From a virus, in the UHGV virus genome UHGV-0154273: a stretch of 12,652 nt of DNA; one strand, given 5' to 3'. Below, piece by piece: positions 1 to 12,652 of this stretch (within the stretch, counting starts at the first letter, position 1; the number at the start of each line of letters is the position of its first letter). Under the pieces are notes generated by a model. The model was not told the DNA's origin, made no database searches, and was given only the letters and a program-made list of their open reading frames with translations. A program made the translations under genes and the position numbers.

Positions 1-72
1 TTTTTTTTCAAGCAGAAGACGGCATACGAGATCGTGATGTGACTGGAGTTCAGACGTGTGCTCTTCCGATCT
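1..72. other. Sequencing adapter contamination: poly-T (1-8) followed by Illumina P7 adapter with 6-nt index and TruSeq read-2 primer site
   Basis: Seen directly: CAAGCAGAAGACGGCATACGAGAT (9-32) + CGTGAT (33-38) + GTGACTGGAGTTCAGACGTGTGCTCTTCCGATCT (39-72), the canonical Illumina indexed adapter. Not biological sequence. Confidence 0.95.
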
Positions 73-834
73 GGAATCGGGCGGCGGCTCGTCTCTGACT
101 TTCTGGAAGCGAACCAAGATAAGTTTTCCCGCCAGACGCTGCAAAACTGGTTAACCTGCTTAGGGACGCTGTATGACTTCGCCCGGCGTAAATATGACAA
201 TATCGCCCCTGATAATCCCTTTCACGGCCACAATCTGGAAGCCCGCCAGACGAACGAAAGTTATCAACCTTTTGAACTACACCAGCTACAGGCATTAATA
301 AAAGAGGCAGGTAGCGAGATACGAGACGTAATCATAATCGGTTTGTATTCCGGTATGCGTCTCGACGAAATCGCCAGCATCAAACGAGTTGAGATTATCA
401 AAGTTGAAGGGGTACGCTGCTTCTACGTCAGCAAATCTAAAACTAAAGCGGGTGTAAGGCACGTCCCCATACACTCGCTGTTAATCAGCATCGTTGATAA
501 ATACCTTGCGCAGAACAACGGTGAATACCTGCTCCCCCAATCGAACAAGATTAAACGTGCCGACGGTAAGCGTGGCCCGTGGTACTCGCAGGCATTTACA
601 CGGCTACGCCGTCGCGTGCTGTCAGCGGCTACAGATCGCCAATGCTTCCACTCCCTGCGTGGTCACTTTATTACTTGCTTAGACAGAGCAGGAGTACCAG
701 AACAGCGCATAGGGGCAATAACCGGGCATACCGAACAAAAAGCTAAAACGGAAGCTTTCAGGACATATAGCAAGGGAGCAGGGATGAAAGAACTATGGGA
801 GTATGTGGAGTTGGTCAGTTATCCGTGTTTATAA
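73..834 (+). CDS. int: Tyrosine recombinase / phage-type integrase, 5'-truncated by the adapter junction (C-terminal ~254 aa present)
   Basis: Translation from 73 contains a core-binding-like region and a catalytic domain with conserved Arg (LYSGMRLDEI), HSLRGHF (His-x-x-Arg box) and a C-terminal GHTEQKAKTEAFRTYSKG with the candidate catalytic Tyr. The Met at 58 in the ORF track is encoded by adapter bases and is not a real start. Stop TAA at 832-834. Confidence 0.85.
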   Translation, partial: GIGRRLVSDFLEANQDKFSRQTLQNWLTCLGTLYDFARRKYDNIAPDNPFHGHNLEARQTNESYQPFELHQLQALIKEAGSEIRDVIIIGLYSGMRLDEIASIKRVEIIKVEGVRCFYVSKSKTKAGVRHVPIHSLLISIVDKYLAQNNGEYLLPQSNKIKRADGKRGPWYSQAFTRLRRRVLSAATDRQCFHSLRGHFITCLDRAGVPEQRIGAITGHTEQKAKTEAFRTYSKGAGMKELWEYVELVSYPCL

Positions 835-860
835 AAAAGGCGCTATAGCGCCTTTCTTTT
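833..860. terminator. Bidirectional intrinsic terminator between convergent integrase and 124-aa gene
   Basis: A-run (833-838), perfect palindromic hairpin GGCGCTATAGCGCC (839-852), T-rich run TTTCTTTT (853-860). Sits exactly between two convergent stop codons. Confidence 0.6.
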
Positions 861-1233
861 AAACATCAAAGATGACATCACCATGATACGCGTTAAACTG
901 CGGATTCCGCATGATGGTGATCACTTGCTGAACTACCCACTTTGCACCGATATCAAGTTCATGCTCTATAGCGCACGGTATAGCAATACCAGATTTCTGA
1001 CACTTGATAGTGAAGGAAAATCCCTCATCTTTGCCTAGAATTGTCTGCAAGTGTTGTCCAATGAAATTTGTAAAAATCACTCTCAACTCAGCTAACGTGA
1101 TTGGAGGTTTATTACGCGGATCATTAAGTCTATCAACAGCAAAATGAAATGACATCTTTAGCTTGGCTCTATCTTCTTCCAAGATATCGTTAATATCTGC
1201 AACTAAATCATCAATCTGCTGTTGAGTTATCAT
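859..1233 (-). CDS. Hypothetical protein, 124 aa; downstream gene of an AT-rich two-gene cassette (possible toxin/effector)
   Basis: ORF with ATGA start/stop overlap with the upstream 69-aa gene. Sampled 60-bp blocks are ~37-42% GC, lower than the rest of the element. No recognisable catalytic motif by eye. Confidence 0.55.
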   Translation of the reverse strand: MITQQQIDDLVADINDILEEDRAKLKMSFHFAVDRLNDPRNKPPITLAELRVIFTNFIGQHLQTILGKDEGFSFTIKCQKSGIAIPCAIEHELDIGAKWVVQQVITIMRNPQFNAYHGDVIFDV

Positions 1234-1439
1234 ATGTGTGCAGCCGTGATCTCAGCTAATTTCTTGTTCAACTCTTCATCGTTTGAAGCTGTGATGGTGC
1301 CTACAAATTCAGTGCGTGATAAAGTACCAGCACGCACATCGAATTCGTAGTTGTCAAACGAATCAACGACGACAAACGCCTTGGTTGCTGGGTTAAAAAA
1401 CGATGCACAATTTTGGTTTGTACGCATATCAAAGTTCAT
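1230..1439 (-). CDS. Hypothetical protein, 69 aa; upstream gene of the AT-rich two-gene cassette (possible antitoxin/partner)
   Basis: Strong SD (AGGAGGA) 4-5 nt before ATG at 1439. 4-bp overlap (ATGA) with the 124-aa gene indicates translational coupling. Confidence 0.6.
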   Translation of the reverse strand: MNFDMRTNQNCASFFNPATKAFVVVDSFDNYEFDVRAGTLSRTEFVGTITASNDEELNKKLAEITAAHI

Positions 1440-1536
1440 ATTATCCTCCTACCCCTTCAAGGGAGATGTAGGAACGAAGTATTCTCAAGTTGAAGCTCAG
1501 TTTGGAGACATATTAGGAAACTGTTTTATGCTCAGC

Positions 1537-1555
1537 CTACGCAATCTACGTCAAT
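1537..1555. promoter_or_regulatory. Tandem imperfect direct repeat CTACG(T)CAAT x2 in the upstream region of the 69/124-aa cassette; candidate operator
   Basis: ctacgcaat (1537-1545) followed by ctacgtcaat (1546-1555), ~100 bp upstream of the cassette start codon on the coding (minus) strand side. Confidence 0.25.
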
Positions 1556-1640
1556 CCGTCAAGAATTGTTTTAAATATAGGCAAGTAACAAGGCAGCCAC
1601 AACAACACATAACCGAATGAAAATAAAAGAAATAATCTCA

Positions 1641-2078
1641 TCACGCATGTTGTCTTGGATAAATAACGCCCAACCCCTTGTATTGTCGGCGGTAGGCAGG
1701 TAGCATGCTTAACATGCTACCTCGTGAGAGTCCGCACAAATTTCCCACATAATAACCACCTTCCGCTGCATTGGCCGAACGATGAACCACAGCGCGCACA
1801 CGTCCAGTTCGGTGACAGTGATCCAATACAGCAGACGCGAGGCGTAGCGGCTTAGCTGTCACCGCGCAGCGTCGGTATTGATAATTCCACAGGAAGACAC
1901 GGACAGCGGCCACATCAGCGCGGCGCAACTCCAGCCGTCCTGAACCATTCAACAGGAAGTGATACACATCATCGAACGCAGCAGAATTTTTAATGCGTTC
2001 CGCTAGCGGCATGTTGCCGAGATATTCCAGATAGCCTCGCATCGCTTTTCTTAGTAGTTGGTCTGTCCGTGTAACCAT
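1641..2078 (-). CDS. Hypothetical protein, 145 aa (last gene of long minus-strand operon)
   Basis: ATG at 2078 preceded by GGAGG SD at 8 nt spacing. Stop TGA 1641-1643. No recognisable domain. Confidence 0.6.
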   Translation of the reverse strand: MVTRTDQLLRKAMRGYLEYLGNMPLAERIKNSAAFDDVYHFLLNGSGRLELRRADVAAVRVFLWNYQYRRCAVTAKPLRLASAVLDHCHRTGRVRAVVHRSANAAEGGYYVGNLCGLSRGSMLSMLPAYRRQYKGLGVIYPRQHA

Positions 2079-2350
2079 GATTCAAAGCCTCCACTGTCAG
2101 ATGCAGCCCGTTTGCAGGCTTCGTATTCTTCGCGCTGGCGTTGGCATACCAGAGCATAAAGCTCGGCGGCCATCGCATTAACACGTTCGTCACTGATACC
2201 ATTGCGGCGCATCAGCCCCAGCAGCTTACGAAATTTAGCTTCAAGCTCAGGCTCTCCGGTATCCATTACCCACTGTTTCAGGTCAGCGAGTGCGCCAGTC
2301 ATTGGTGGCGGCTCGATGTACCGCCACCTTAATTTAATCGTGGTTATCAT
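2051..2350 (-). CDS. Hypothetical protein, ~99 aa (start refined relative to ORF track)
   Basis: ORF track start at 2398 is a TTG. In-frame ATG at 2350-2348 is preceded by AGAGGA SD at ~9 nt and gives MITTIKLRW... Overlaps the upstream gene stop by 17 nt and the downstream gene start by 28 nt. Confidence 0.5.
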   Translation of the reverse strand: MITTIKLRWRYIEPPPMTGALADLKQWVMDTGEPELEAKFRKLLGLMRRNGISDERVNAMAAELYALVCQRQREEYEACKRAASDSGGFESWLHGQTNY

Positions 2351-2759
2351 TTTCTTTATCCTCTCTGTAAGCCGGGTGCATTGCCCGGTATTGCTCAATG
2401 GTCAAACCCTCGCTGGCCGCTGCAAACCGTTCCTTTTGCTTACCCGCCAATCGCAAGGCGCTGTCTCTCCAGCAGAGCAGAAAGAAGATGGTCAGCACCT
2501 GCTTACTCAAGCCATCCAGAAGATCACCAAGCCCTTGCTCCAGAAGACAGGCACGCCATGCAGCGGCGTGCTCAGTCATAGCACCTACTATCGGGACAGG
2601 TGCTCCGAGCATTGTCGCAAGCTGACTCATAACACTGTTAGCATCGCCCGGATGCAGCCGTGGAATAGTCATGCGGCCAGCCTGCGCCAACAGTTCAGCG
2701 TACCGCTGGCGGCGCGGGTCATCATCTGCCAGCGCTCTAATCGGCTTTTCATCAGCCAT
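2334..2759 (-). CDS. Hypothetical protein, 141 aa (speculatively a small-terminase-like packaging factor given its HNH neighbour)
   Basis: ATG at 2759 with GGAGG SD 9 nt upstream. Lies immediately downstream of the HNH endonuclease gene. Function not recognisable from sequence. Confidence 0.55.
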   Translation of the reverse strand: MADEKPIRALADDDPRRQRYAELLAQAGRMTIPRLHPGDANSVMSQLATMLGAPVPIVGAMTEHAAAWRACLLEQGLGDLLDGLSKQVLTIFFLLCWRDSALRLAGKQKERFAAASEGLTIEQYRAMHPAYREDKENDNHD

Positions 2760-2777
2760 TAATGGAACCTCCGAGGA

Positions 2778-3305
2778 TTAGGCAGCCTGCAATAAATCGG
2801 CTGGCGTTGACGGATGGTATCTGGCTTTAGCTTTCAGGTACGCAGCACGCGCCGCCGCTTCGGTAGTGAATAAGCCGAGGTGATGGCGAACACCACCAAC
2901 GCGAATGTAAGCCTCCCATCTGCCAGAGCAGGCATGGTGGCTATAACCCTTGGCTTTGCGGTAATTGTGCTGGTTCTCTTGTGGCGTAACCGTGCGGAGA
3001 TTGATAAGGCGGTTGTCATCGCGTACCGCGTTGATATGGTCGATTTGCATCCCGGCAGGGATACCGTCATTAGCAATGATGAAGGCGACACGGTGGGCGT
3101 ATAGCGCATGAGATTTGCCATTGATGCGGACAGATACGCGCCTATATCCGGCGCTGTCCGTTACCGTGTCGGCCAGTTCCCCGGCTTTAGCGTAAATCCG
3201 CTTGTTGGCTCCGATCCGGTCTACTGCATGGAACAGGCGGCCAGTCTTCGCATCGTACCGAAACAAAGAGCGCAACAGCTCCGGGGCATAAGCATCAATA
3301 TTCAT
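2778..3305 (-). CDS. HNH endonuclease with C-terminal AP2-like DNA-binding domain (phage homing/packaging-associated type)
   Basis: HNH_3-type motif HRVAFIIANDGIPAGMQIDHINAVRDDNRLINLRTVTPQENQHN (His, Asn and His spacing typical of HNH). C-terminal GYSHHACSGRWEAYIRVGGVRHHLGLFTTEAAARAAY resembles the AP2 domain commonly fused to phage HNH nucleases. Confidence 0.85.
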   Translation of the reverse strand: MNIDAYAPELLRSLFRYDAKTGRLFHAVDRIGANKRIYAKAGELADTVTDSAGYRRVSVRINGKSHALYAHRVAFIIANDGIPAGMQIDHINAVRDDNRLINLRTVTPQENQHNYRKAKGYSHHACSGRWEAYIRVGGVRHHLGLFTTEAAARAAYLKAKARYHPSTPADLLQAA

Positions 3306-3321
3306 GGCTCGGCCCCTTTTG

Positions 3322-4317
3322 TTATGCAGCTTGTCGGAAATTTATAACGCAGTCAGGGCGGCGCAGCCCAACATTGAACAGGCGATATGAGTCCATCACC
3401 ATTGTCATTTCGCGTTCATCATCCCACTGGCGATTGATAACGCTCTGCGCTTCGACTGTCACAAGTACAGACGCAGGCCGGAACAGCGTCGCCCGTGTCA
3501 GCGCTTCCCCTGCGGTCACATCATAATCAGCGCCCAGTTCATGCGCGGTAATGGCTTCCTGCGGGTAACTGTTCAGCTCAATAACTCGCACCCCAGCGAC
3601 ATAGCCAACGCGACGCCATGCGTAATCATTGCCACTATCCCGGCTGTAACGGACGTTCATCAACTTCTTATGTTCCATCAGGATGCTGAACCAAGCTGGG
3701 TCGATGAGAAGGCACAGCTCCGCCACCGGAATATCTTTTTCAGTTAGGAATCGATTAACAGCAGCTTTAATAGCGTGAACCAGTTCGTTAGCCGCATCCT
3801 CTTCGCTCCCCGTTGTCAGGTCGAGCGAGACAACATTATCCGTCAGCGGGTTAAACGTTGGTTGCAACGTAGGCGGCGGTACAAAGTCAGTCGCTTTGAT
3901 TAGCTGGATAGTGTGCGCTTCGTCGTAGAACTTTGCATGGGCTGTCCCCATGTTGCGGCTCAGCTCTGCGCGAAAGGTGGGCGCTGTCCAGTCGTCTTGA
4001 TAGTCAATCGGGATGCGGATATAGCTCAGCGTATCCACAGAGATAATCAGCTTGTCCGACTTAACGGCGGTAGGCTCCAGCGATTGCCCTGCGGTTCTGC
4101 CCTTCACCTCCAGATCTCCGCTCAGGCGGTCTACACGATACTGATTACTGTTTTTCAGCGGCTTGTATGTGCTCAGCCCCTCGGCGAGAAACACGCTCTT
4201 TGCCTCAAGGCGGGTCTGAACGTCCCGGTCATACGCTTCAATGTGAATGTCGTTGTCAGCATCTACACCGCCCCAGTGCGGGCGGAATTGGTCAGGGGTA
4301 TAAACATTGTCAGTCAT
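3322..4317 (-). CDS. Conserved-looking 331-aa protein of unknown function; possibly structural (capsid-like), unverified
   Basis: Long clean ORF with GGGAG SD 8 nt upstream of ATG at 4317. No nucleotide-binding or nuclease motif seen. Sits between a Q/N-rich scaffold-like protein and the HNH endonuclease, a context typical of head/packaging modules. Product assignment is inference only. Confidence 0.7.
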   Translation of the reverse strand: MTDNVYTPDQFRPHWGGVDADNDIHIEAYDRDVQTRLEAKSVFLAEGLSTYKPLKNSNQYRVDRLSGDLEVKGRTAGQSLEPTAVKSDKLIISVDTLSYIRIPIDYQDDWTAPTFRAELSRNMGTAHAKFYDEAHTIQLIKATDFVPPPTLQPTFNPLTDNVVSLDLTTGSEEDAANELVHAIKAAVNRFLTEKDIPVAELCLLIDPAWFSILMEHKKLMNVRYSRDSGNDYAWRRVGYVAGVRVIELNSYPQEAITAHELGADYDVTAGEALTRATLFRPASVLVTVEAQSVINRQWDDEREMTMVMDSYRLFNVGLRRPDCVINFRQAA

Positions 4318-4385
4318 AGAAATAGCTCCCGCGCCAGCGTTAGCCAGCGCGATTTATGGAAAAGGGGAAAAGAGAATGGGATGAA

Positions 4386-4733
4386 TCAGGCAGCAGCTTT
4401 TTCAGCCGCGATCTCAAGAATCAGGCCGATAAGCGCGAAGGCAGGCCAATGGGGATTAAGCTCGTGCAGGTGCGCAACGCCCCCACCAAAAGCATCGCGC
4501 ATATCAGCACCAGAGATGCCCGCGCGTTTGGCCGCCCGGCGCAGCAATCGCAGCTCGGAGCCGGGAACATACGCCGAGGGCATACGCACGCCGAAGCGTG
4601 AGGCGAGCCGCCGCCAGTGCGCTTCGTCAGCAAAGTCCTGCTTAAGCTGGCTGGCGTTGGCTTTCCAGTGTTCAATCCTCGCGCTACGGGCAGCCCTAGC
4701 CGCTGCCACGTTTTCAGGTGTCAGTAAGGTCAT
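4386..4733 (-). CDS. Hypothetical protein, 115 aa, Arg/Ala-rich with hydrophobic C-terminus
   Basis: ORF in operon orientation. Weak SD. C-terminal WPAFALIGLILEIAAEKAAA could be a membrane or amphipathic segment. Confidence 0.5.
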   Translation of the reverse strand: MTLLTPENVAAARAARSARIEHWKANASQLKQDFADEAHWRRLASRFGVRMPSAYVPGSELRLLRRAAKRAGISGADMRDAFGGGVAHLHELNPHWPAFALIGLILEIAAEKAAA

Positions 4734-4812
4734 TGTCAGATCTCAATGCAAAGTGGGTTTATGTGTGGTGTTTGAGAGGTAATTTCGCGTTTTACAGGTG
4801 CAGGTATACGAA

Positions 4813-4832
4813 TGTACATCTGGCGATGTACA
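4813..4832. promoter_or_regulatory. Inverted repeat TGTACAT-N6-ATGTACA in intergenic gap between the 228-aa and 115-aa genes
   Basis: Perfect 7-bp arms (4813-4819 and 4826-4832) with a 6-nt spacer. No U-run follows on the coding strand, so a binding site or attenuator-like hairpin is more likely than a terminator. Confidence 0.3.
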
Positions 4833-4892
4833 ACGCGATTCAGGCTCTAAAACGTAAGGTTAAGACGTGGGGAAGACAGGACAGGCGATTGC

Positions 4893-5579
4893 TTAACGGC
4901 CAGCGCGTTTGCCAGCGGAGCGCTGCGCAACCAGAGCGCGGTATTGATCGTCGTACTGGCGATGGCCGGGGCCATACCCTGATTGCTGCGCCCACTGCGA
5001 AAGCTGATCATACGCTGCAATAAACTCAGCATGAGACATACCAACAGGTTGCGAGGCAGGCTGGCCGTATGGGTTCCCCTGTGATGGGACATAACCAGTC
5101 GCAGTGCCTGCGACCATACGCTCTTGCAGATAATGAACCGCCCGCTGCATCTGCGCAGGGTCGCCAGACATAACCATCCGTTCAAGGGTTGATTGCGTCC
5201 CGGCGTCGAGCGTGCCAGCGTACTGCAACATCGCGTCAACTGTCCCCTGCCCTAGCTGGCTTTCGACAGACTGGTGAAACTGCCCCATCAGCCCATGAAG
5301 TTCAGGAGTCAACTCAACAGTAGTGCCATCCTGTAATTGCAGCGTGTCGCCCACTTGCGCAGCAACATCAATCTGCTGGTCTTGCTGGTTGGCAAAGTTA
5401 CTTTCGTTCCAGCTTTGATTAATGTTCGCTGGCTGCGTTTTCAGGAAATCAGCATCAGGTGTTGTCTGGTCGAATCTGCTAGCGCCGTTGTCAGCGCCTA
5501 CAGGTGCGGCCATGTACGGCGATTGCTGCGGCGCAGTATCAGCGCCCGAAAGGTACGGATTAACATTCTGGTCAGCCAT
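4893..5579 (-). CDS. Q/N/G-rich low-complexity acidic protein, 228 aa (scaffold-, decoration- or mimic-like; function unknown)
   Basis: ATG at 5579 with AAGAGG SD ~10 nt upstream. Composition strongly biased to Gln, Asn, Gly, Asp and Thr, with predicted disorder. Immediately follows the stop of the upstream HTH gene. Confidence 0.65.
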   Translation of the reverse strand: MADQNVNPYLSGADTAPQQSPYMAAPVGADNGASRFDQTTPDADFLKTQPANINQSWNESNFANQQDQQIDVAAQVGDTLQLQDGTTVELTPELHGLMGQFHQSVESQLGQGTVDAMLQYAGTLDAGTQSTLERMVMSGDPAQMQRAVHYLQERMVAGTATGYVPSQGNPYGQPASQPVGMSHAEFIAAYDQLSQWAQQSGYGPGHRQYDDQYRALVAQRSAGKRAGR

Positions 5580-5581
5580 GA

Positions 5582-5821
5582 TTATGCAACCTCTTGTGAT
5601 GTAACTCGGCGATGTGCCAGTTCAAGTAAAAGCATGTGCGCGTGTACGCATCGGGCAGGAATCATCTTCTGTCCGTGGTACGCTTTGCCGAGATCTTGTC
5701 TGTCGATCTGGTACACATGAGCCAAATCGATTTGACGAAGATTCAAGGCTTCGGCAATGAATTTCAGTTGTTGCCCGCAATCAGCCGCGCGGCGTGGCTC
5801 CATTAAAATAATGGTGCTCAT
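5582..5821 (-). CDS. Putative small HTH (XRE/Cro-like) DNA-binding protein, ~79 aa (start refined)
   Basis: ORF track start at 5863 is a TTG. ATG at 5821 has GAGGA SD at 7-8 nt. Segment LKFIAEALNLRQIDLAHVYQIDRQDLGKAYHG has a helix-turn-helix-like pattern. Confidence 0.5.
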   Translation of the reverse strand: MSTIILMEPRRAADCGQQLKFIAEALNLRQIDLAHVYQIDRQDLGKAYHGQKMIPARCVHAHMLLLELAHRRVTSQEVA

Positions 5822-5835
5822 GAAATAATCCTCAG

Positions 5836-6069
5836 TTAGATAAGGCCATGACGACGCAACCAACGTCGCTCGCCAACGGAGCCACGCGGTCGCTGCCTTG
5901 GATTCTGGTTTGGTGCTTGGCCGGGATCAGTTCGCCCTTCCCCGGACAGGTTCTGTGTCAGCACATCCCAGCCGCGTGATTCAAACGGGGCGTATCCCTC
6001 GCGCTGTTCGTCAAGGTTCACATAGAGATCAGGGTTAACGGCAGGGTGCAGCGGTTCGTTCTCTGCCAT
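5836..6069 (-). CDS. Hypothetical protein, ~77 aa
   Basis: ATG at 6069 overlaps the upstream stop (TGATG). The track's extra N-terminal Met comes from a GTG at 6072. Confidence 0.45.
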   Translation of the reverse strand: MAENEPLHPAVNPDLYVNLDEQREGYAPFESRGWDVLTQNLSGEGRTDPGQAPNQNPRQRPRGSVGERRWLRRHGLI

Positions 6070-6632
6070 CACTTAGCCCCGAATCGCGTGTTAACGTCTT
6101 CCAAAATATCTGGATAAGACCACTTGCTACGCATCAGGCGCAGGACATGAGCAACAGCCTCAGCAGAGATCCCAAGCTCCCCAGCGATCTCGGTTTGTTT
6201 CCAGCCGAAGCGCTCCAGCTTGTGCATCTGATCGAGGTCGGCGCTCAACAGGCGGCGCATCGTCTGCGGTTTCTCAGGCTTTGCTTTAACTGCTTTCGGC
6301 ATCGGGTGGGTGTGGGCGTTGCTAAAGCGGGAATGGACGATAGCCAGCACAGTTTCAGGCCGAATTAGAAAATCGCGTGCAATGGCATGTGCAGTGTCCC
6401 AGTGGCCGCGCCCCGGTTTCCAGCGCTTACGGATGGCGTTGTATTCCTCCAGCGTAATAGCGGCTTCATCCCTCCACTGGTTGGCAAGGTCGGCTACATA
6501 AACGCCGCGCAGCACCGCGTCAACGTCCTCCGGGTCAAATCCGGTTGCAGCGACTACCTCTTCCACATTGCGAAGGTCGCGCTTAACGAGGGTATTGATG
6601 CGCTGGATATCGGTCAGGCTCAGAACTGTCAT
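6069..6632 (-). CDS. HTH-domain protein, 187 aa (C-terminal sigma-70 region-4/LuxR-like helix-turn-helix; regulator or small-terminase-like)
   Basis: C-terminal DLDQMHKLERFGWKQTEIAGELGISAEAVAHVLRLMR matches an HTH pattern. ATG at 6632 overlaps the stop of the upstream small ORF (ATGA). Confidence 0.6.
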   Translation of the reverse strand: MTVLSLTDIQRINTLVKRDLRNVEEVVAATGFDPEDVDAVLRGVYVADLANQWRDEAAITLEEYNAIRKRWKPGRGHWDTAHAIARDFLIRPETVLAIVHSRFSNAHTHPMPKAVKAKPEKPQTMRRLLSADLDQMHKLERFGWKQTEIAGELGISAEAVAHVLRLMRSKWSYPDILEDVNTRFGAK

Positions 6633-6805
6633 AAGGTAAAGTCTCCATCGAAATTGATTTGATCTTCAATCAGCGTGCGAATGAGTAGCAGGCTGGAAGC
6701 GGTGTGTGTTCCCGTCTTGCGGGCGCTTTCATACATGGCTCGTGCTGCGCTCTGATAGTTCGGCGGCAGGGTTGCAAACCATGCTCTAAACTCTGCGGGT
6801 GTCAT
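6629..6805 (-). CDS. Small ORF, 58 aa, not in the supplied ORF track (below its length cutoff)
   Basis: Translated by hand: MTPAEFRAWFATLPPNYQSAARAMYESARKTGTHTASSLLLIRTLIEDQINFDGDFTL. Its ATG (6805-6803) overlaps the TGA of the upstream 68-aa gene and its TGA overlaps the ATG of the 187-aa gene, fitting the coupled operon pattern. Confidence 0.4.
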   Translation of the reverse strand: MTPAEFRAWFATLPPNYQSAARAMYESARKTGTHTASSLLLIRTLIEDQINFDGDFTL

Positions 6806-7008
6806 TGCTCGTCATCCTCAAATACACGGTTAAATGACGTGTCCGGCGCTTCTACGGCATTGGCCTTAAGGAAGTTGACCGCACTGGATAACTCCGCTGC
6901 GGCCATGCGCGACTCACCAGCCTTGTCTTCCTCAAGGCGGCGGATTAGCGCCCCAAGAAGCAAGCCTTTCATTCGCCACGTTTCATTTTCAAACTCGGTT
7001 TTAGTCAT
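6802..7008 (-). CDS. Hypothetical protein, 68 aa
   Basis: ATG at 7008 lies within ATGACTAA, which also contains the stop of the upstream 145-aa gene. Confidence 0.5.
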   Translation of the reverse strand: MTKTEFENETWRMKGLLLGALIRRLEEDKAGESRMAAAELSSAVNFLKANAVEAPDTSFNRVFEDDEQ

Positions 7009-7438
7009 GCGGATTAACTCCTGTCAGCCCCATTACGCGCAGGTACTGGATTACTTCGGCGTGTACTGGTTTTGGTAAAAAGAGGCGACGCTGCACAGAT
7101 TGAAATATCTCGTCGCGCGTCTTGTTGGCAGGGTGAACAGTCCCATTAAAGACCTCACGAGCCATGCGATAGGTCGGCCAAAGACGAGCGCCATCCTCCC
7201 GGCGTCGGAATCTATTCAGCACAGCGGCCAGACATTCCCAAGGCTCACAGTGATTGAGCAGGCAATACCGCTGTAGCGGCGTACCAGCTTGGCGCAAGAT
7301 GGCCGCACGATTAAGAGTCTGGCGGTGGCGCTCAGCTAACCCATCGAAGGAATATCCGTTCAGGGCGAAGGCAAGTTGTGCGGTGACGAGCGCATCCGCA
7401 CGCGTAGCACGACGCTGCGCATGTTCGGTAACAGGCAT
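7001..7438 (-). CDS. Hypothetical protein, 145 aa
   Basis: ATG at 7438 with TGGAG SD ~8 nt upstream. Follows the helicase stop after a 38-nt gap. Confidence 0.6.
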   Translation of the reverse strand: MPVTEHAQRRATRADALVTAQLAFALNGYSFDGLAERHRQTLNRAAILRQAGTPLQRYCLLNHCEPWECLAAVLNRFRRREDGARLWPTYRMAREVFNGTVHPANKTRDEIFQSVQRRLFLPKPVHAEVIQYLRVMGLTGVNPHD

Positions 7439-7476
7439 ATGGATTAACTCCAGAGAATGAGGGGGAGCCTTTCGAC

Positions 7477-9321
7477 TCAGAGGTATTTAGCGATGTACTG
7501 CCAGTTGCAGTTTTCAGGGCGGTAGAAGTAAGCAAGCTCATCAGGCGCAGCATCCAGCGCCAGCGATGACCACAGCAGAAACGCGCGGGCAGGTTGACCA
7601 TCGCGCCCGGCTCGTCCAATCATCTGAATGAGGTCAGGCAGGTCATCAGGAATATATGTAACGATGACGTTGCGAATGTCTGGCACATCAGCCCCCAGCC
7701 CGAAGGCTTTAGTAGCAATCAGAATTGCGCCCGGCGTAGTGGCAAACCACTCAGCGTTTGCGTGGCGTTCTTCGTTACTCAAGTGCATCGTCTTCGAGTG
7801 ATATGGGCGCGCCCGGTCGCCTAAGAGTTTCAGGTACGCCCGCAACGTCTTAAGGTCATTGACGAGAATGAGCGTCTTCTCTTCTTTCGGCAGAGCCTCG
7901 ACCAGACCAATAGCCGCTCGGAAACGTTCGCGGCACTGTCTGACTGTCGTCAACTGGATATTTTCGCGAGCAACATCAGCACGGAATGTTACGTAATCAC
8001 CACGGCAGCCAAGCGACGCCATTAAACTGCGCTCATTTTCGCGTAGCAGCGTAGCCGTAAATACGCAGCGTTGAGCCGAAAGAAAGGCATGTTGTAGCGA
8101 GTGCTGCATGGCCTCGTAAGCGGGTCGGAAATCCCAGTCTTTAACCGTGTGCGCTTCGTCGATGATAAAACGATCAACGCCGTAAGCCATCAGCGCCGCG
8201 AAGACCTGACTCGACAGAACAAGATGCTCAGGTGAAACGACAGCAACACGGAACGCCCCGGCAGCCAGCCCCGCGAGTTGTTGAGCGTTGCGGTGCCTCG
8301 GCAACTTGTCACCGAATGCCACAGCGTGAACGCCAGCATCCCGCAACTGGCGGAGAATCTGGCGCTTTAGGGTATTAGTGGGAACCACGATTACAGACAG
8401 GCCAACGCCAGCGCGGGACTCATAAATCAATGGATAAGCGAAGGCGGCGGTCTTGCCATAACCCGTAGGCAGAACGGCCAGCACATCACTACCACGGGAG
8501 AAGATCGCATCAGCAACAGACAACTGCCCCGGCCTCCACTCCAGCCCATCGGGTGGCAACAGGCTAACGCGTGCGTTTCGGTCACAGCGAACCAGCGGGC
8601 GAAACTCATAAGAGGCTGTATTCAGTGACGGCACAGACGGCGACACTGCCAAGCCGTTTGGGTCACAATGATGATTTGTACTGTTAAATTTATCCTCGGT
8701 AGGTTTCGACTCTCCACACCACAATTGACGAAACTCCGCTGAGTCCCCGTAGCGTTTGAAATCTGAATTGCGCATCGCTTCCAGTTTATTCATGCCCCTG
8801 TTGATGCGGTGTATAGTCTTCTCATCACAAATCAGGAACTCGCGGCAGGCTTTGAGAAAAGCATTCTGCCCGGTTGTCGATGCCGAAACGGCGTGCTCGC
8901 GCGGTTTCAATGCGGCATCATCTACGCGAACACCGGGAAAATCAGGCGGCAGCGGGTCAGCATACCGAGCAGGCTTCTTGTTGAGCCACATTTCTATCTC
9001 AGCGCGTCGGCAATGAATTGCGTCACCGGGCTGGATGACTTGCCGCAACCCCGTGTCAGAGCGCTGTTTTTGCTTCTTCGGTTGAACACCATGCAGCGCT
9101 CGCCATTCCCGCAGGGTCATAGCGGAGCCATCAGCATTGTAATAAAACTCTTCGGTCTTCGTGTTGTATGCCGCCTTAACGGGTTTATGCTTTATCGGGC
9201 ATATCTTGGAACGCCGAATAACAATCCCGTCAGCGACCATTTGCTGTACATCTGCGTTTGCGGTATTGAGCGGGTCAGCGTCGGCAGCCTGCGCAAGCAA
9301 ACGGCGTAGGTTCGTTGGCAT
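7477..9321 (-). CDS. RecQ-family superfamily-2 DNA helicase (DEAH box) with an unrecognised ~280-aa N-terminal domain; likely replication helicase of the element
   Basis: Helicase motifs read directly: RPGQ (Q-motif-like), LPTGYGKTAAF (Walker A/motif I), SPEHL, IIDEAHTVKDWDFRPAY (DEAH motif II followed by the RecQ-typical aromatic-rich loop), FTATL (motif III), MIGRAGRDGQ (motif VI). No RQC/HRDC tail. ATG at 9321 with GGAGA SD 9 nt upstream. Confidence 0.9.
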   Translation of the reverse strand: MPTNLRRLLAQAADADPLNTANADVQQMVADGIVIRRSKICPIKHKPVKAAYNTKTEEFYYNADGSAMTLREWRALHGVQPKKQKQRSDTGLRQVIQPGDAIHCRRAEIEMWLNKKPARYADPLPPDFPGVRVDDAALKPREHAVSASTTGQNAFLKACREFLICDEKTIHRINRGMNKLEAMRNSDFKRYGDSAEFRQLWCGESKPTEDKFNSTNHHCDPNGLAVSPSVPSLNTASYEFRPLVRCDRNARVSLLPPDGLEWRPGQLSVADAIFSRGSDVLAVLPTGYGKTAAFAYPLIYESRAGVGLSVIVVPTNTLKRQILRQLRDAGVHAVAFGDKLPRHRNAQQLAGLAAGAFRVAVVSPEHLVLSSQVFAALMAYGVDRFIIDEAHTVKDWDFRPAYEAMQHSLQHAFLSAQRCVFTATLLRENERSLMASLGCRGDYVTFRADVARENIQLTTVRQCRERFRAAIGLVEALPKEEKTLILVNDLKTLRAYLKLLGDRARPYHSKTMHLSNEERHANAEWFATTPGAILIATKAFGLGADVPDIRNVIVTYIPDDLPDLIQMIGRAGRDGQPARAFLLWSSLALDAAPDELAYFYRPENCNWQYIAKYL

Positions 9322-9436
9322 GGTGAAATCTCCAAAATTAAGGTGAGTTTAGAACGAGGCGCAGGACGGCAGCGCCGAGCTGCCCGTAGAGAGAATTTCA
9401 TGTCAGCAGTGACGTTGAATGTTCTGTCCCTCTTTA

Positions 9437-9462
9437 GTAGTGACTTTCATGTAGGTCACTAC
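9437..9462. promoter_or_regulatory. Perfect 8-bp inverted repeat GTAGTGAC-N10-GTCACTAC upstream of the helicase operon; candidate operator
   Basis: Arms at 9437-9444 and 9455-9462, ~115-140 bp upstream of the helicase start codon on the coding-strand side. Confidence 0.35.
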
Positions 9463-9510
9463 GTATGCACAAGCGAGTGGTGTTCGTTTTGCCACAGTAG
9501 AAACTCTAAT

Positions 9511-9529
9511 TTGATTATTTTTTAATCAA
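9511..9529. promoter_or_regulatory. AT-rich inverted repeat TTGATTA-TTTTT-TAATCAA in helicase-recombinase intergenic region
   Basis: 7-bp arms (9511-9517 and 9523-9529) with a 5-nt T spacer, within an AT-rich stretch that may hold the operon promoter or an origin-like region. Confidence 0.25.
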
Positions 9530-10211
9530 CACCTTTGTAAGCCTTGCCCTGTCTGACTTGATGAATGATTTGCTGATAACTTTCAGTAGGTTTGTTGGGA
9601 TGCTGGGATGTAAGGGGTTATAAGCGGCATTGTGAGTACCATATCCCAATATAGTACCGTACCACTACTCTATCCCCGCCGCGTTGACTGCCTGGCAAGC
9701 ACGGTTGCGTGGAGGGCCGAGCATCACAGCGGGCGAAGGCCGGGAATGAGCCAAAGGCGATGGAGCGGGCTGGAGCATAGCGAGAAGCGCAGCCAGTGTA
9801 GAGCGAAAAGCGATAACACTGATTAGGAGAAGGGATGAAAGGGAAGAACCCTTTTCTGTACATGTATTTTAAATGCAACTTTAAAGGTAAAACGAAGGTG
9901 TTGCCCTGCTTCAAATCTAGCTGAGTGATTGGACAACACAGCCTTTGATCCCTTCCCCTGCCCCATCCCTCGAATTGTTCAGTGATAAATCACATTCACA
10001 ATCTGATCTTGATACTCATCGTCTGGCACGGCTAAAGCCCCGCCATCTCTTCATATCAAGAGCCGCAAGTAATACGGAAATACATTATAAATCATACCAT
10101 TACGAGATTAGGCATAACATAAATATCTGATATCAATACAAAAGCTGTAGGCCATCCATCACCCACAGCCCAGTAACGGCCAGTGCTGGCATCTCATCAG
10201 ACTGTAGGTCA

Positions 10212-10844
10212 TCACTCTGTAACGCTGGCGGACAGCTCACGTTTGATACGGTAGAACGTTGCCCGGCTTATCCCGGCAGCTTTCATGATGTGCTCTGGTT
10301 TATTCCCAACGGTAAGCATAGCGCGGACAGTTTCACGGGCGCTCTCATCCTTAGACTTCCCGTTATATTTCCCCTCGGCTTTGGCACGCTTGATGCCCTG
10401 CGCTTGGCGTGCTCTGCGTGTCTCGTAGTCCACTCGTGCCATCGTAGCGAGGATATCAATCAGCATTGCGTTAACAGCTCTCAGGATGCCCTCTGTAAGC
10501 TCTGACGCCGTATCGTTCAGTAGTTGCCATGAGGTTGGCAGGTCAACGGCAACGATCACCAGTCCCTTATCCTGAATCCTCTGTTTCAGTGTCGCCCATT
10601 CCTTTTGCGTAAGGCGGCTTAGCCTGTCGATGCTCTCGACAAGCAAGACCTCTCCGGCCTGCGCATCATCCAGCAAGCGCATTAGTTCAGGACGCGCCAG
10701 CCTCGCACCGCTGGCGTTCTCGATGTACTCCGCCCGTACAGGCCAGCCCCGATCACTGGCGAACTCTCGCAGCAAGCCCAGCGCCCGGTCTGCGTGTTGC
10801 TCTGATGTACTGGCGCGGCAATAGATAAGCGCATTGTGTGCCAT
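10212..10844 (-). CDS. Serine recombinase of the resolvase/invertase family, 210 aa
   Basis: N-terminal catalytic region with YCRASTSEQ (Ser nucleophile motif), RPELMRLL and LLVESIDRLSR, which parallel Hin/resolvase motifs. C-terminal HTH (KAAGISRATFYRIKREL). ATG at 10844 with G-rich SD. Confidence 0.85.
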   Translation of the reverse strand: MAHNALIYCRASTSEQHADRALGLLREFASDRGWPVRAEYIENASGARLARPELMRLLDDAQAGEVLLVESIDRLSRLTQKEWATLKQRIQDKGLVIVAVDLPTSWQLLNDTASELTEGILRAVNAMLIDILATMARVDYETRRARQAQGIKRAKAEGKYNGKSKDESARETVRAMLTVGNKPEHIMKAAGISRATFYRIKRELSASVTE

Positions 10845-10970
10845 GCTTCCCCCTAAGTCTCAATGAAATATCACAGCAAGACCTATAAGAGATCACATCA
10901 ATAATGTGTAGTCAATAGAGTTTTATAGATAGTCAAATGAGACAGTGTGTCTATGTCTTTATCAGGTATA
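10845..10970. promoter_or_regulatory. Candidate res-like / autoregulatory region upstream of the serine recombinase gene
   Basis: Short repeats directly upstream of the recombinase start: direct repeats TAGTCAAT (10909-10916) and TAGTCAAAT (10930-10938), palindrome AGACA-GTG-TGTCT (10940-10952), repeated ATCACA motifs (10870-10900). By analogy with Tn3-family res sites lying just upstream of tnpR; inference only. Confidence 0.25.
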
Positions 10971-11561
10971 CCCGAAAGAGACTGGCACCGCCCCACAGCA
11001 GCATTCCCCGGCACATCCAGCGAACACAGCGTAGAGCGCACGCAGCAGATCAGCACGGCACCGCCACGATCTCGAAATCACAAAGGCATTGAATCACACA
11101 TTGGAAGCACAGAACGCAGCACAGAGCGATACAGATCGTTTTAGAGGGATGTACAGATACACAGTGAAAGGCAGATGATCGCAGCACTCGTCCCACACGG
11201 TTATTCAGCAACAGCAATCAGCCAGCATCTCGCTCAGTAGCACGCTCCTGTAATGCTTGTCTCGGATGAGCAAAATCTTAGGGTTTCTCAGCGACCCCTG
11301 ACGCGCGGGCACGCACATGCACACGGGGGCGCGGGCGAGCTATAGAGTTGAGGGAGGGGCAACCATAAGCGTGCAATTTTCAAGCTGGGACTTTTAACAG
11401 TGGGATTGTGGGGCTGTTTTGCATTCAGAGAGTGAGGCTGTGGGGGAGCCCTCCTTGAACCAAATAATGCGAAACTGATCATTCTTCCACGTAGCTTAGG
11501 CCACTTTGCATGGATAATTAGCACCAAACACAGCAGCCAGTTTAAGAGAAATGCGCGACAT

Positions 11562-11780
11562 CTACCGTCTGCGTTTACCCCAGCGCTGCATTATGGCTCT
11601 GTGTGCTTCATCCGCTGACCATTCAATAGGTACAACAACGTGTACAGGCATTTCATCGCCAGAGGGGGCACCACGTAAATGGACTCTATACCCTAGTTTA
11701 TTAAGTTCTACCTCGGACATCGGTGATATAACCTCGCCGCTATGGCTGCCGCCAACAAACTCAGCTTTAAAATCCAACAT
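11562..11780 (-). CDS. Hypothetical protein, 72 aa
   Basis: ORF whose ATG (11780-11778) is preceded, 1 nt away, by a 9-nt homopolymeric G tract on the coding strand. The plus-strand ORF 11551-11874 covers the same DNA; the minus strand is preferred because of operon orientation but this is uncertain. Confidence 0.4.
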   Translation of the reverse strand: MLDFKAEFVGGSHSGEVISPMSEVELNKLGYRVHLRGAPSGDEMPVHVVVPIEWSADEAHRAIMQRWGKRRR

Positions 11781-11781
11781 G

Positions 11782-11790
11782 CCCCCCCCC
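11782..11790. repeat. Homopolymeric tract C9 (G9 on coding strand) abutting the start codon of the 72-aa gene
   Basis: Nine consecutive C at 11782-11790. Potential slipped-strand phase-variation site or assembly-error hotspot. Confidence 0.9.
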
Positions 11791-11823
11791 TACACACTAA
11801 CAAGAATCATTGAAGGTGTATCA

Positions 11824-11841
11824 CCCAGCAACTACGCTGGG
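11824..11841. promoter_or_regulatory. Hairpin-forming inverted repeat CCCAGC-N6-GCTGGG between the 153-aa and 72-aa genes
   Basis: 6-bp arms (11824-11829 and 11836-11841). No immediate U-run, so terminator function is uncertain. Confidence 0.25.
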
Positions 11842-11870
11842 CAGAACATCACCTCGGACTATCAATCAAC

Positions 11871-12329
11871 TTAGTATCGCTTTGTGTCTCGTAGTATTAC
11901 AGACAGTAACCACCACCATTGGCGTTTGATCCAACAAACATCACTGAACATCTTGCCGTCAGATGTTTTGATATAAACCCCGCCACGATGATGCACTTTG
12001 TTGTGATGAGCCTTATTTATGAATGGCACGTTCAAGACCATTTCGTCTCGTGCTTTCAATCTTTTTGGCAGCATCGGTGTGATCATGTTCTCGTCCGAAT
12101 ATTCGTCGGATAACATTCTAAGGCGTCCACTGGCTGTTACCACACCGGCTGCACTCAACGTTACATCGTGTGCGCTTATGTTCGAAACGTATATCCTGTC
12201 CTCGTGCTGATCACATCCGAGATAAAGCCTTAGCGATGTTCTGGATTTTAGTAATTGAAATACGGACAAAGCAAAACCCGCCCACGCCGCGATCCCTGTC
12301 CAGTTATCTGTTTGGGTGATCCAAGTCAT
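11871..12329 (-). CDS. Predicted membrane-anchored protein, ~152 aa (N-terminal transmembrane helix), in AT-rich cassette
   Basis: ATG at 12329 overlaps the stop of the upstream 75-aa gene (TGATG); the track's start at 12332 is a TTG. N-terminal hydrophobic segment WTGIAAWAGFALSVFQLL. Sampled blocks ~37-40% GC. Confidence 0.6.
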   Translation of the reverse strand: MTWITQTDNWTGIAAWAGFALSVFQLLKSRTSLRLYLGCDQHEDRIYVSNISAHDVTLSAAGVVTASGRLRMLSDEYSDENMITPMLPKRLKARDEMVLNVPFINKAHHNKVHHRGGVYIKTSDGKMFSDVCWIKRQWWWLLSVILRDTKRY

Positions 12330-12556
12330 CAAGGCTGCATCCCCTTCGACATAAGATACTTAACGATCCCTTCTCGTTGCCTATTACTCAGCTGAAAACA
12401 TTTGTCTAGTTGAGATAAAACCTGCTCGACATCATCTGCCAAGATGGCACTAGCTGCACGAGCGGGGAGATCTCCCTGAATTTTGATAGTGAAATACCCT
12501 GAAGATATTGATAGCTTCAAAAAACAACCTGCTGAGAACTCGTAACTCTCGCTCAT
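12329..12556 (-). CDS. Hypothetical protein, 75 aa, first gene of right-end AT-rich cassette
   Basis: ATG at 12556 with AGAGG SD 7 nt upstream. Its promoter would have to lie beyond the compositional junction at ~12557-12571. Confidence 0.5.
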   Translation of the reverse strand: MSESYEFSAGCFLKLSISSGYFTIKIQGDLPARAASAILADDVEQVLSQLDKCFQLSNRQREGIVKYLMSKGMQP

Positions 12557-12571
12557 AACCGCCTCTGTTGA

Positions 12572-12652
12572 CAGTTCGGCGAGCGCATTGCCGACGGCCG
12601 CACGCGTGTGTACCTGGTCAACACCGGCTGGATCGGCGGCGGCTACGGCGTG
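12572..12652 (+). pseudogene. pckA: Internal fragment of an ATP-dependent phosphoenolpyruvate carboxykinase (PckA)-like gene from a high-GC genome; truncated on both sides
   Basis: In-frame translation QFGERIADGRTRVYLVNTGWIGGGYGV contains the YLVNTGW-GG-YG signature of the PckA kinase region. An in-frame TGA lies immediately upstream (12569-12571). The fragment is ~68% GC with G/C-rich third positions, unlike the rest of the window. Confidence 0.45.

Follow-up and report, generated by a model that had tools for sequence, protein, structure and literature searches.

A run of nine G residues lies directly upstream of a small minus-strand gene for a 72-aa protein, in the place of its ribosome-binding site, and the length of this run varies in nature. 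Sequence comparison and a model of translation initiation lead us to favor, with moderate confidence, the explanation that the tract is the slippage-prone Shine-Dalgarno (SD) element of a real gene and gives its expression a graded, heritable setting.

The tract can be read directly from the window, by which we mean the whole 12,652-nt stretch of DNA analyzed here. Positions 11778-11792 of the plus strand are CAT G CCCCCCCCC TA. Read along the minus strand, a UA dinucleotide is followed by the nine G residues (11790 to 11782), a single C (11781), an ATG (11780 to 11778) and a TTG (11777 to 11775). The tract spans positions -2 to -10 relative to the start of the 72-aa gene, in agreement with the coordinates and description in the earlier note, which had placed nine G residues on the coding strand 1 nt before the ATG. 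The features at the gene start are as follows.

11782-11790, minus strand: G9 homopolymer (C9 on the plus strand), a simple sequence repeat (SSR) of polymorphic length and the putative SD-like element of the 72-aa gene.
11791-11792, minus strand: UA dinucleotide 5' of the tract, which extends the pairing with the 16S 3' end and is kept in 21 of 21 loci.
11775-11780, minus strand: tandem starts, ATG (11780-11778) and TTG (11777-11775).
11562-11780, minus strand: gene for the 72-aa protein, a member of a small uncharacterized alpha/beta family known from its homologs and an AlphaFold2 fold.

No other C or G run of at least 7 nt occurs in the window. Based on 200 dinucleotide-preserving shuffles of the window, a C9/G9 run is expected by chance 0.04 times per window, and such a run was present in six of the shuffles. 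The complete E. coli genome NZ_LR536431.1 also carries G9 in a region that is 100% identical. In E. coli K-12, G.C runs of 8 bp are already outliers of the genome-wide distribution, and runs of at least 8 are strongly avoided in this species (PMC8510543).

Homologs sharing a conserved motif, together with a confident predicted fold, indicate that the 72-aa ORF is a real gene. A word-indexed search recovered a single cluster at 90% identity, whose 10 members come from E. coli and Kosakonia. When 1.8 billion representatives were scanned exhaustively with HMMER, eight proteins of 71-80 aa emerged that align from residue 1 with 34-46% identity, and a profile search yielded further homologs from Hydrogenophaga, Cellvibrionaceae and metagenomes. 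Taken over two protein searches, the aligned homologs are 71-80 aa long and 30-51% identical (up to 55% by BLASTP), and their alignment defines the family motif F-x-GG...E-x-EL-x-x-LGYR...AVP-x-EW-x-x-DEAH. Given a 17-sequence alignment, AlphaFold2 predicts a beta-beta-alpha-beta-beta-alpha fold with a pLDDT of 90.3 and a pTM of 0.75, compared with a pLDDT of 55 from the single sequence alone. The coding evidence comes from the distant homologs because the substitutions between close alleles (seven nonsynonymous and three synonymous) are uninformative, carrying no signal of constraint at such short distance.

The tract marks a small uncharacterized protein family whose confidently predicted fold has no significant match in the PDB or BFVD. 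The 72-aa protein has no match in Pfam, PHROGs, PADLOC or NCBIfam, and no conserved neighbor gene was found beside its distant homologs. The family is very rare, amounting to 11 clusters in 5.8 billion proteins and one of 185,579 GTDB species representatives; among 5,426 complete E. coli genomes, the gene is present in one. Roughly 1,000 public assemblies encode a protein identical to the 72-aa product.

In the 15 nt before their ATG, the distant homologs have ordinary SD motifs and no homopolymer, with layouts such as AGGAG-6 nt-ATG, AAGGTG-6 nt-ATG and GGAG-7 nt-ATG, and in the closest outgroup (55% identity) the layout is GGGTGGGGGTG-4 nt-ATG. In the enterobacterial clade, UA-Gn-C is the sole purine-rich element before the ATG. 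Since ordinary SDs occupy the same slot in the distant homologs, we conclude from this comparison that the G tract is a lineage-specific replacement of the ribosome-binding site, and the position assigned to it in the earlier note is borne out.

In a thermodynamic model, the strongest pairing with the 16S 3' end that needs no gap is UAGGGGGG : 3'-AUUCCUCC-5', a duplex of 8 bp and -9.6 kcal/mol. The conserved UA anchors this anti-SD duplex on its 5' side and fixes its leftmost register, so that each G added or lost moves the SD-to-start spacing by 1 nt. For G9 the modeled aligned spacing to the AUG is 3-4, which is workable for a site of such 16S complementarity. With seven or fewer G residues the modeled spacing to the AUG is too short, and the spacing to the UUG is 3-4.

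Three independent observations fit a dual start at AUG and UUG. Gene callers pick the TTG in G6 alleles (71-aa products P0005 and P0006), in a G5 contig (L022) and in a contig whose ATG reads AAG (L021). Replacement of the ATG, by GTG (L003) or by AAG (L021), leaves the ORF retained. Several distant homologs begin at the position equivalent to codon 2 of the 72-aa gene. In practical terms, the tract gives inconsistent gene calls: PGAP leaves both the 72-aa ORF (11562-11780) and a 75-aa ORF (12329-12556) unannotated in NZ_LR536431.1, and in other pipelines the small gene comes out with 72 aa (ATG) or 71 aa (TTG) according to the length of the tract. An N-terminal extension of the 72-aa ORF is ruled out by an in-frame TAG directly before the tract (G9 and G6). 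We also rejected a six-codon upstream ORF ending at the tract (AUG AUU CUU GUU AGU GUG UAG), which is not conserved, its AUG being lost in two allele groups (11809, 11808).

A second G9 tract was seen at positions 785-793 of an unrelated metagenome contig (L029; ERZ27275342 k141_8210033). It reads cgtTA-G9-CTA-ATG, the same 'UA-G9-C..AUG' layout as in the window, and stands 3 nt ahead of a 266-aa ORF that has a Cys-rich N-terminus and hydrophobic segments. The contig also has a distant homolog of the 72-aa protein (P0019) 1.9 kb downstream of its G9. This arrangement would be a hint of recurrent homopolymeric SDs in this gene neighborhood.

The 72-aa gene belongs to a module shared between otherwise different surroundings, with these parts.

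11347-12332, minus strand: 986-bp two-gene module, made up of the 152-aa gene, the spacer with the tract, the 72-aa gene and about 215 nt downstream.
11871-12329, minus strand: 152-aa upstream gene with a hydrophobic N-terminal segment, a predicted membrane protein.
11781-11870, minus strand: 90-nt spacer between the 152-aa and 72-aa genes, with 9 variable positions among alleles.

Copies of the module in E. coli, Kosakonia and metagenome contigs share 94-100% identity, while their flanks differ. The 152-aa gene is intact in every allele open to examination; in Kosakonia-type alleles it has 157 aa with a GTG start, a form that annotation pipelines miss. Neither a sigma-70-like promoter nor a terminator was found in the spacer, from which we infer that the 72-aa gene is probably co-transcribed with the 152-aa gene. 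The module has sharp boundaries and recurs in satellite-like islands. Elsewhere it lies beside Thoeris TIR, Shedu and type I R-M genes and, in K. arachidis, beside CbtA/CbeA and ParE modules. In E. coli E2348/69 (L002 5998-7453), what is left of the module is the 152-aa gene and a piece of 45 nt from downstream, and an oppositely oriented 230-aa gene stands in place of the G tract and the 72-aa gene.

Window positions 72-12576 are essentially identical to the E. coli VREC0864 chromosome (NZ_LR536431.1) with one 549-bp exception. That chromosome is without 549 bp (window 9709-10257) found in the window and in other copies, which removes the 3' end of the resolvase. Strains bearing the island include VREC0864, GCA_030199775.1 and Kosakonia oryzae/radicincitans. 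The DNA forms an integrative island, bounded by an integrase on one side and tRNA-Gly on the other, and carries genes for endonuclease VII, an HNH endonuclease, a major head protein (phrog_267, E = 3e-67), a scaffold-like protein, a DEAD/DEAH helicase and a serine recombinase, and we read this content as that of a phage-satellite-like element of E. coli and Kosakonia. The tract lies in the accessory end by the attachment site, where small genes of 75, 152 and 72 aa follow one another in series on the minus strand. A stretch of about 890 nt between the helicase and resolvase genes (9322-10211) has no convincing ORF and no Rfam match and may be a regulatory region, an origin or an uncharacterized RNA.

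Across 21 independent loci, the tract is G5 in one, G6 in seven, G7 in one, G8 in six, G9 in five (the window included) and G10 in one. It is never broken by a substitution, and it is the sole indel site in flank alignments of related loci. Among six loci with no difference over 980 flanking nt, four have G9 and two have G8; the Kosakonia-type group (at most 3 differences) likewise contains both G8 and G7. Other lengths repeat faithfully: four independent metagenome contigs of one allele all have G6, the K. arachidis draft (strain Ah-143) and the complete CP045300.1 both have G6 with no difference over 980 flanking nt, four Kosakonia-type loci have G8 and five E. coli-type sources have G9. Because lengths differ reproducibly, and do so between copies with identical flanks, the comparison indicates that the tract is a true indel hot spot and no one-off assembly error. 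This status agrees with the exponential rise of E. coli indel rates with homopolymer length (PMC8510543).

Repeat number is accordingly polymorphic among close relatives, and the uniform length that the earlier note had named as evidence against its proposal is not what nature holds, copies without a single SNP over 980 nt included. Most length differences track allele lineages (the G6, G8 and G9 groups), which suggests that lengths are stable over considerable time and that the tract is not wildly unstable. Exact-pattern scans for the tract gave no hit in viral contigs, one in metagenome contigs and none in GTDB representatives; a protein-based scan of representatives found K. arachidis only, and phage and plasmid collections gave no match.

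The effect of length on translation was estimated with a simplified re-implementation of a Salis-type initiation model that combines hybridization, a spacing penalty, a start-codon term and local mRNA unfolding. Its parameters are based on Salis et al. 2009, and it uses ungapped registers and no standby term. In this model, pairing strength saturates at six G residues and spacing is what changes with length. The earlier note had held that length changes would alter both SD-like pairing and spacing; the second part stands, while pairing is predicted to stay the same for six or more G residues. Relative to G9, the modeled AUG rate is 0.006 for G6, 0.02 for G7, 0.19 for G8, 1 for G9, 3.1 for G10 and 5.8 for G11, and the rate from the UUG at codon 2 is 0.16-0.37 across G6-G9. 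The preferred start flips from UUG to AUG around G8, and the output summed over the two starts differs from that of G6 about 8-fold at G9 and about 20-fold at G10. The effect on expression is thus predicted to be graded and not ON/OFF, with the adjacent UUG as a buffer, and tract length probably tunes the amount of 72-aa protein made.

Together, these results are consistent with the following mechanism. The G tract would serve as the SD element of the 72-aa gene, which stands second in a conserved accessory module of two genes beside the island attachment site. As a 9-bp G.C homopolymer, it would gain and lose G residues by replication slippage far faster than the flanks acquire substitutions. 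With the 16S 3' end predicted to pair no further upstream than the UA preceding the tract, one G gained or lost would amount to a 1-nt change between the SD duplex and the AUG. Long alleles (G9-G10) would hold the AUG at a workable spacing; in short alleles (G5-G7) the AUG would be too close, and initiation would move to the weaker UUG at codon 2. The net outcome would be a heritable, slowly reversible and graded protein dose with no ON/OFF switch. E. coli and Kosakonia are mismatch-repair proficient, and switching is therefore expected to be slow, well below that in Neisseria, Campylobacter or Helicobacter.

The strongest competing explanation accepts the G run as the SD and has its length drift with neither regulatory nor adaptive meaning, pairing in several registers and the use of either start keeping expression robust. 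We regard this as possible, if on the unlikely side. It draws on the mainly lineage-bound distribution of lengths, on the tolerance of the GTG and AAG start changes, on the distant homologs that do well with ordinary SDs and on the established mismatch-repair proficiency of the hosts. Real ribosomes tolerate homopolymeric SDs in several registers. The UUG start may also buffer the effect of tract length, as it does for short alleles in the model. The modeled total rate nevertheless still shifts about 8-fold between G6 and G9. Moreover, long G.C runs are avoided in E. coli (PMC8510543), yet an uninterrupted run of at least six G residues stands at 20 of the 21 loci, which argues against mere drift.

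A stronger version of the graded setting makes the tract a genuine contingency element of an enterobacterium with proficient mismatch repair, namely a hypermutable SD that would toggle between AUG and UUG and dose a small protein against its membrane partner in a possibly anti-phage or abortive-infection satellite module. We consider this doubtful. If it holds, subpopulations bearing the satellite would differ heritably in module activity. More generally, simple-sequence contingency loci are usually regarded as almost absent from E. coli and its relatives, and long G.C runs are rare there. If confirmed, a length-polymorphic ribosome-binding site on this mobile island would mean that slippage-based tuning of expression can reach mismatch-repair-proficient hosts by way of mobile elements, and it would offer a simple natural system (G5-G10, tandem AUG/UUG) for relating SD-to-start spacing to translation.

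The length differences might instead be homopolymer errors of sequencing or assembly, with the true length uniform within each allele and the G9, G8, G10 and G5 differences spurious. The condition of the contig gives this some substance. Window positions 1-71 are an Illumina TruSeq indexed adapter (CAAGCAGAAGACGGCATACGAGAT-CGTGAT-GTGACTGGAGTTCAGACGTGTGCTCTTCCGATCT), the integrase gene is cut at position 72, and the last 76 nt (12577-12652) are unrelated high-GC DNA encoding GERIADGRTRVYLVNTGWIGGGYGV, which resembles PEP carboxykinase. Given the adapter start and the foreign end, the contig is a raw short-read assembly with chimeric ends, and the caution over assembly quality voiced in the earlier note was reasonable. 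Its doubt about the true length is eased by five independent sources that have G9, the modal length for this allele. The G5 and G10 lengths come from metagenome contigs with coverage below 2x, and the G9/G8 difference within one allele depends on two G8 assemblies, and one of these (a 5.3-Mb contig) probably derives from long reads. Error could account for G5, G10 and one of the two G8 cases. It cannot, if random, account for the whole length pattern: the lengths of different alleles are reproducible (G6 in the four metagenome contigs and both K. arachidis assemblies, G8 in four loci, G9 in five), G8 is also present in an isolate assembly of short-read size (L006), and the tract itself is present everywhere. 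We therefore judge error to be an improbable source of the variation as a whole.

Alternatively, the tract could act at the RNA level, where the G run would pair either with a C/U-rich small RNA or with a complementary segment inside the gene, hiding the SD and the AUG, and its length would set the strength of pairing. The internal segment is the following.

11661-11668, minus strand: internal CCCCCUCU (codons 38-40), a predicted pairing partner of the G tract and the start codon; non-significant.

Minimum free energy folds pair UAG9CAUGU with ACGUGGUGCCCCCUCU (codons 34-40), about 110 nt downstream, and the tract is more than 80% paired in the predicted ensemble. A C-to-U change in the Kosakonia allele retains G.U pairing, and there is a precedent for a G-repeat as RNA target in the RepG-tlpB pair of Helicobacter pylori (PMC8322730). 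Against this, the stability of the tract-sequestering fold does not significantly exceed that of shuffled sequences (z = -1.39; 18 of 200 shuffles equally stable), and no compensatory covariation is seen among alleles. The window has no Rfam family match, and no candidate small RNA is known for the G tract. We keep this sequestration as a weak rival, and a very improbable one. Two further roles were rejected. A promoter or terminator function of the tract or spacer has no sigma-70-like site and no terminator to support it there, three weak matches lying elsewhere in 11200-12652. An invertible segment driven by the adjacent serine recombinase was set aside, with no convincing long inverted repeats flanking the module.

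Finally, we dismiss as hardly credible the option that a 107-aa plus-strand ORF (11551-11874) is the real gene, as the earlier note allowed for, and that C9, read as Pro-Pro-Pro, is a frameshift switch in its coding region: this ORF exists, covers the tract and keeps its frame in the G9 and G6 alleles, but it has no Pfam match and an S/T/P-rich, antisense-like composition, its frame is broken by G8, among the commonest lengths, as it would be by G7, and the opposite strand encodes the protein with distant homologs and a confident fold.

The favored reading, an SD whose length sets expression in a graded manner, can be compared with known systems. In mechanism class, the locus would be a simple-sequence contingency locus. 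The G9 tract exceeds the length of about seven that lets a G/C homopolymer slip frequently, it occupies the ribosome-binding slot of a real gene, where it can be expected to affect expression, and its length is polymorphic among near-identical strains. The contingency loci of Neisseria, Haemophilus, Campylobacter and Helicobacter (porA, opc, pgtA, napR) likewise have a G/C run of at least 7 nt whose length changes by slipped-strand mispairing between close isolates, napR for example having 6-12 G residues across isolates (PMC11798529). Those tracts lie inside ORFs, where frameshifts turn expression ON or OFF, or in the spacers between -35 and -10 elements, whereas here the tract is in the ribosome-binding site itself and its predicted effect is graded. 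The host also differs from those in this comparison in having MutSLH mismatch repair. To our knowledge, E. coli is not noted for SSR contingency loci.

Closer analogs are found in 5'-UTRs. The G-repeat in the 5'-UTR of Helicobacter pylori tlpB varies between strains and, through the small RNA RepG, gives a length-dependent graded output (Pernitzsch et al. 2014; PMC8322730). It resembles the present tract as a strain-variable homopolymeric G-repeat in an mRNA leader. The tlpB repeat acts via a trans-acting C/U-rich small RNA, while the tract described here abuts the start codon, where direct anti-SD pairing is the simplest reading. In the espR 5'-UTR of Mycobacterium tuberculosis, a recurrent +1 G variant raises translation efficiency in a reporter (PMC11898584). 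The likeness is a +1 G change in a 5'-UTR homopolymer; in our case the homopolymer would be the SD and the variable would be the SD-to-start spacing. In hmw1A of Haemophilus influenzae, an intergenic heptanucleotide SSR forms part of the transcribed 5'-UTR, and expression is graded according to its length (PMC12721329). That repeat has a 7-nt unit and acts via a long hairpin processed by RNase III, in contrast to a mononucleotide run in the SD.

Relative to all of these 5'-UTR analogs, the present case is set apart by a homopolymer that would itself be the SD and abuts the start, by two tandem starts and by mismatch-repair-proficient Enterobacteriaceae as hosts, in which such loci are unexpected. 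The earlier note had spoken of a classic translational phase-variation arrangement. This description is not supported, as a homopolymer within the SD is not a classic arrangement and the modeled response is graded and buffered by the UUG. Among known systems, the tract is probably best described as a length-polymorphic, slippage-prone ribosome-binding site that would act as a slow graded setting rather than a classic ON/OFF phase switch.
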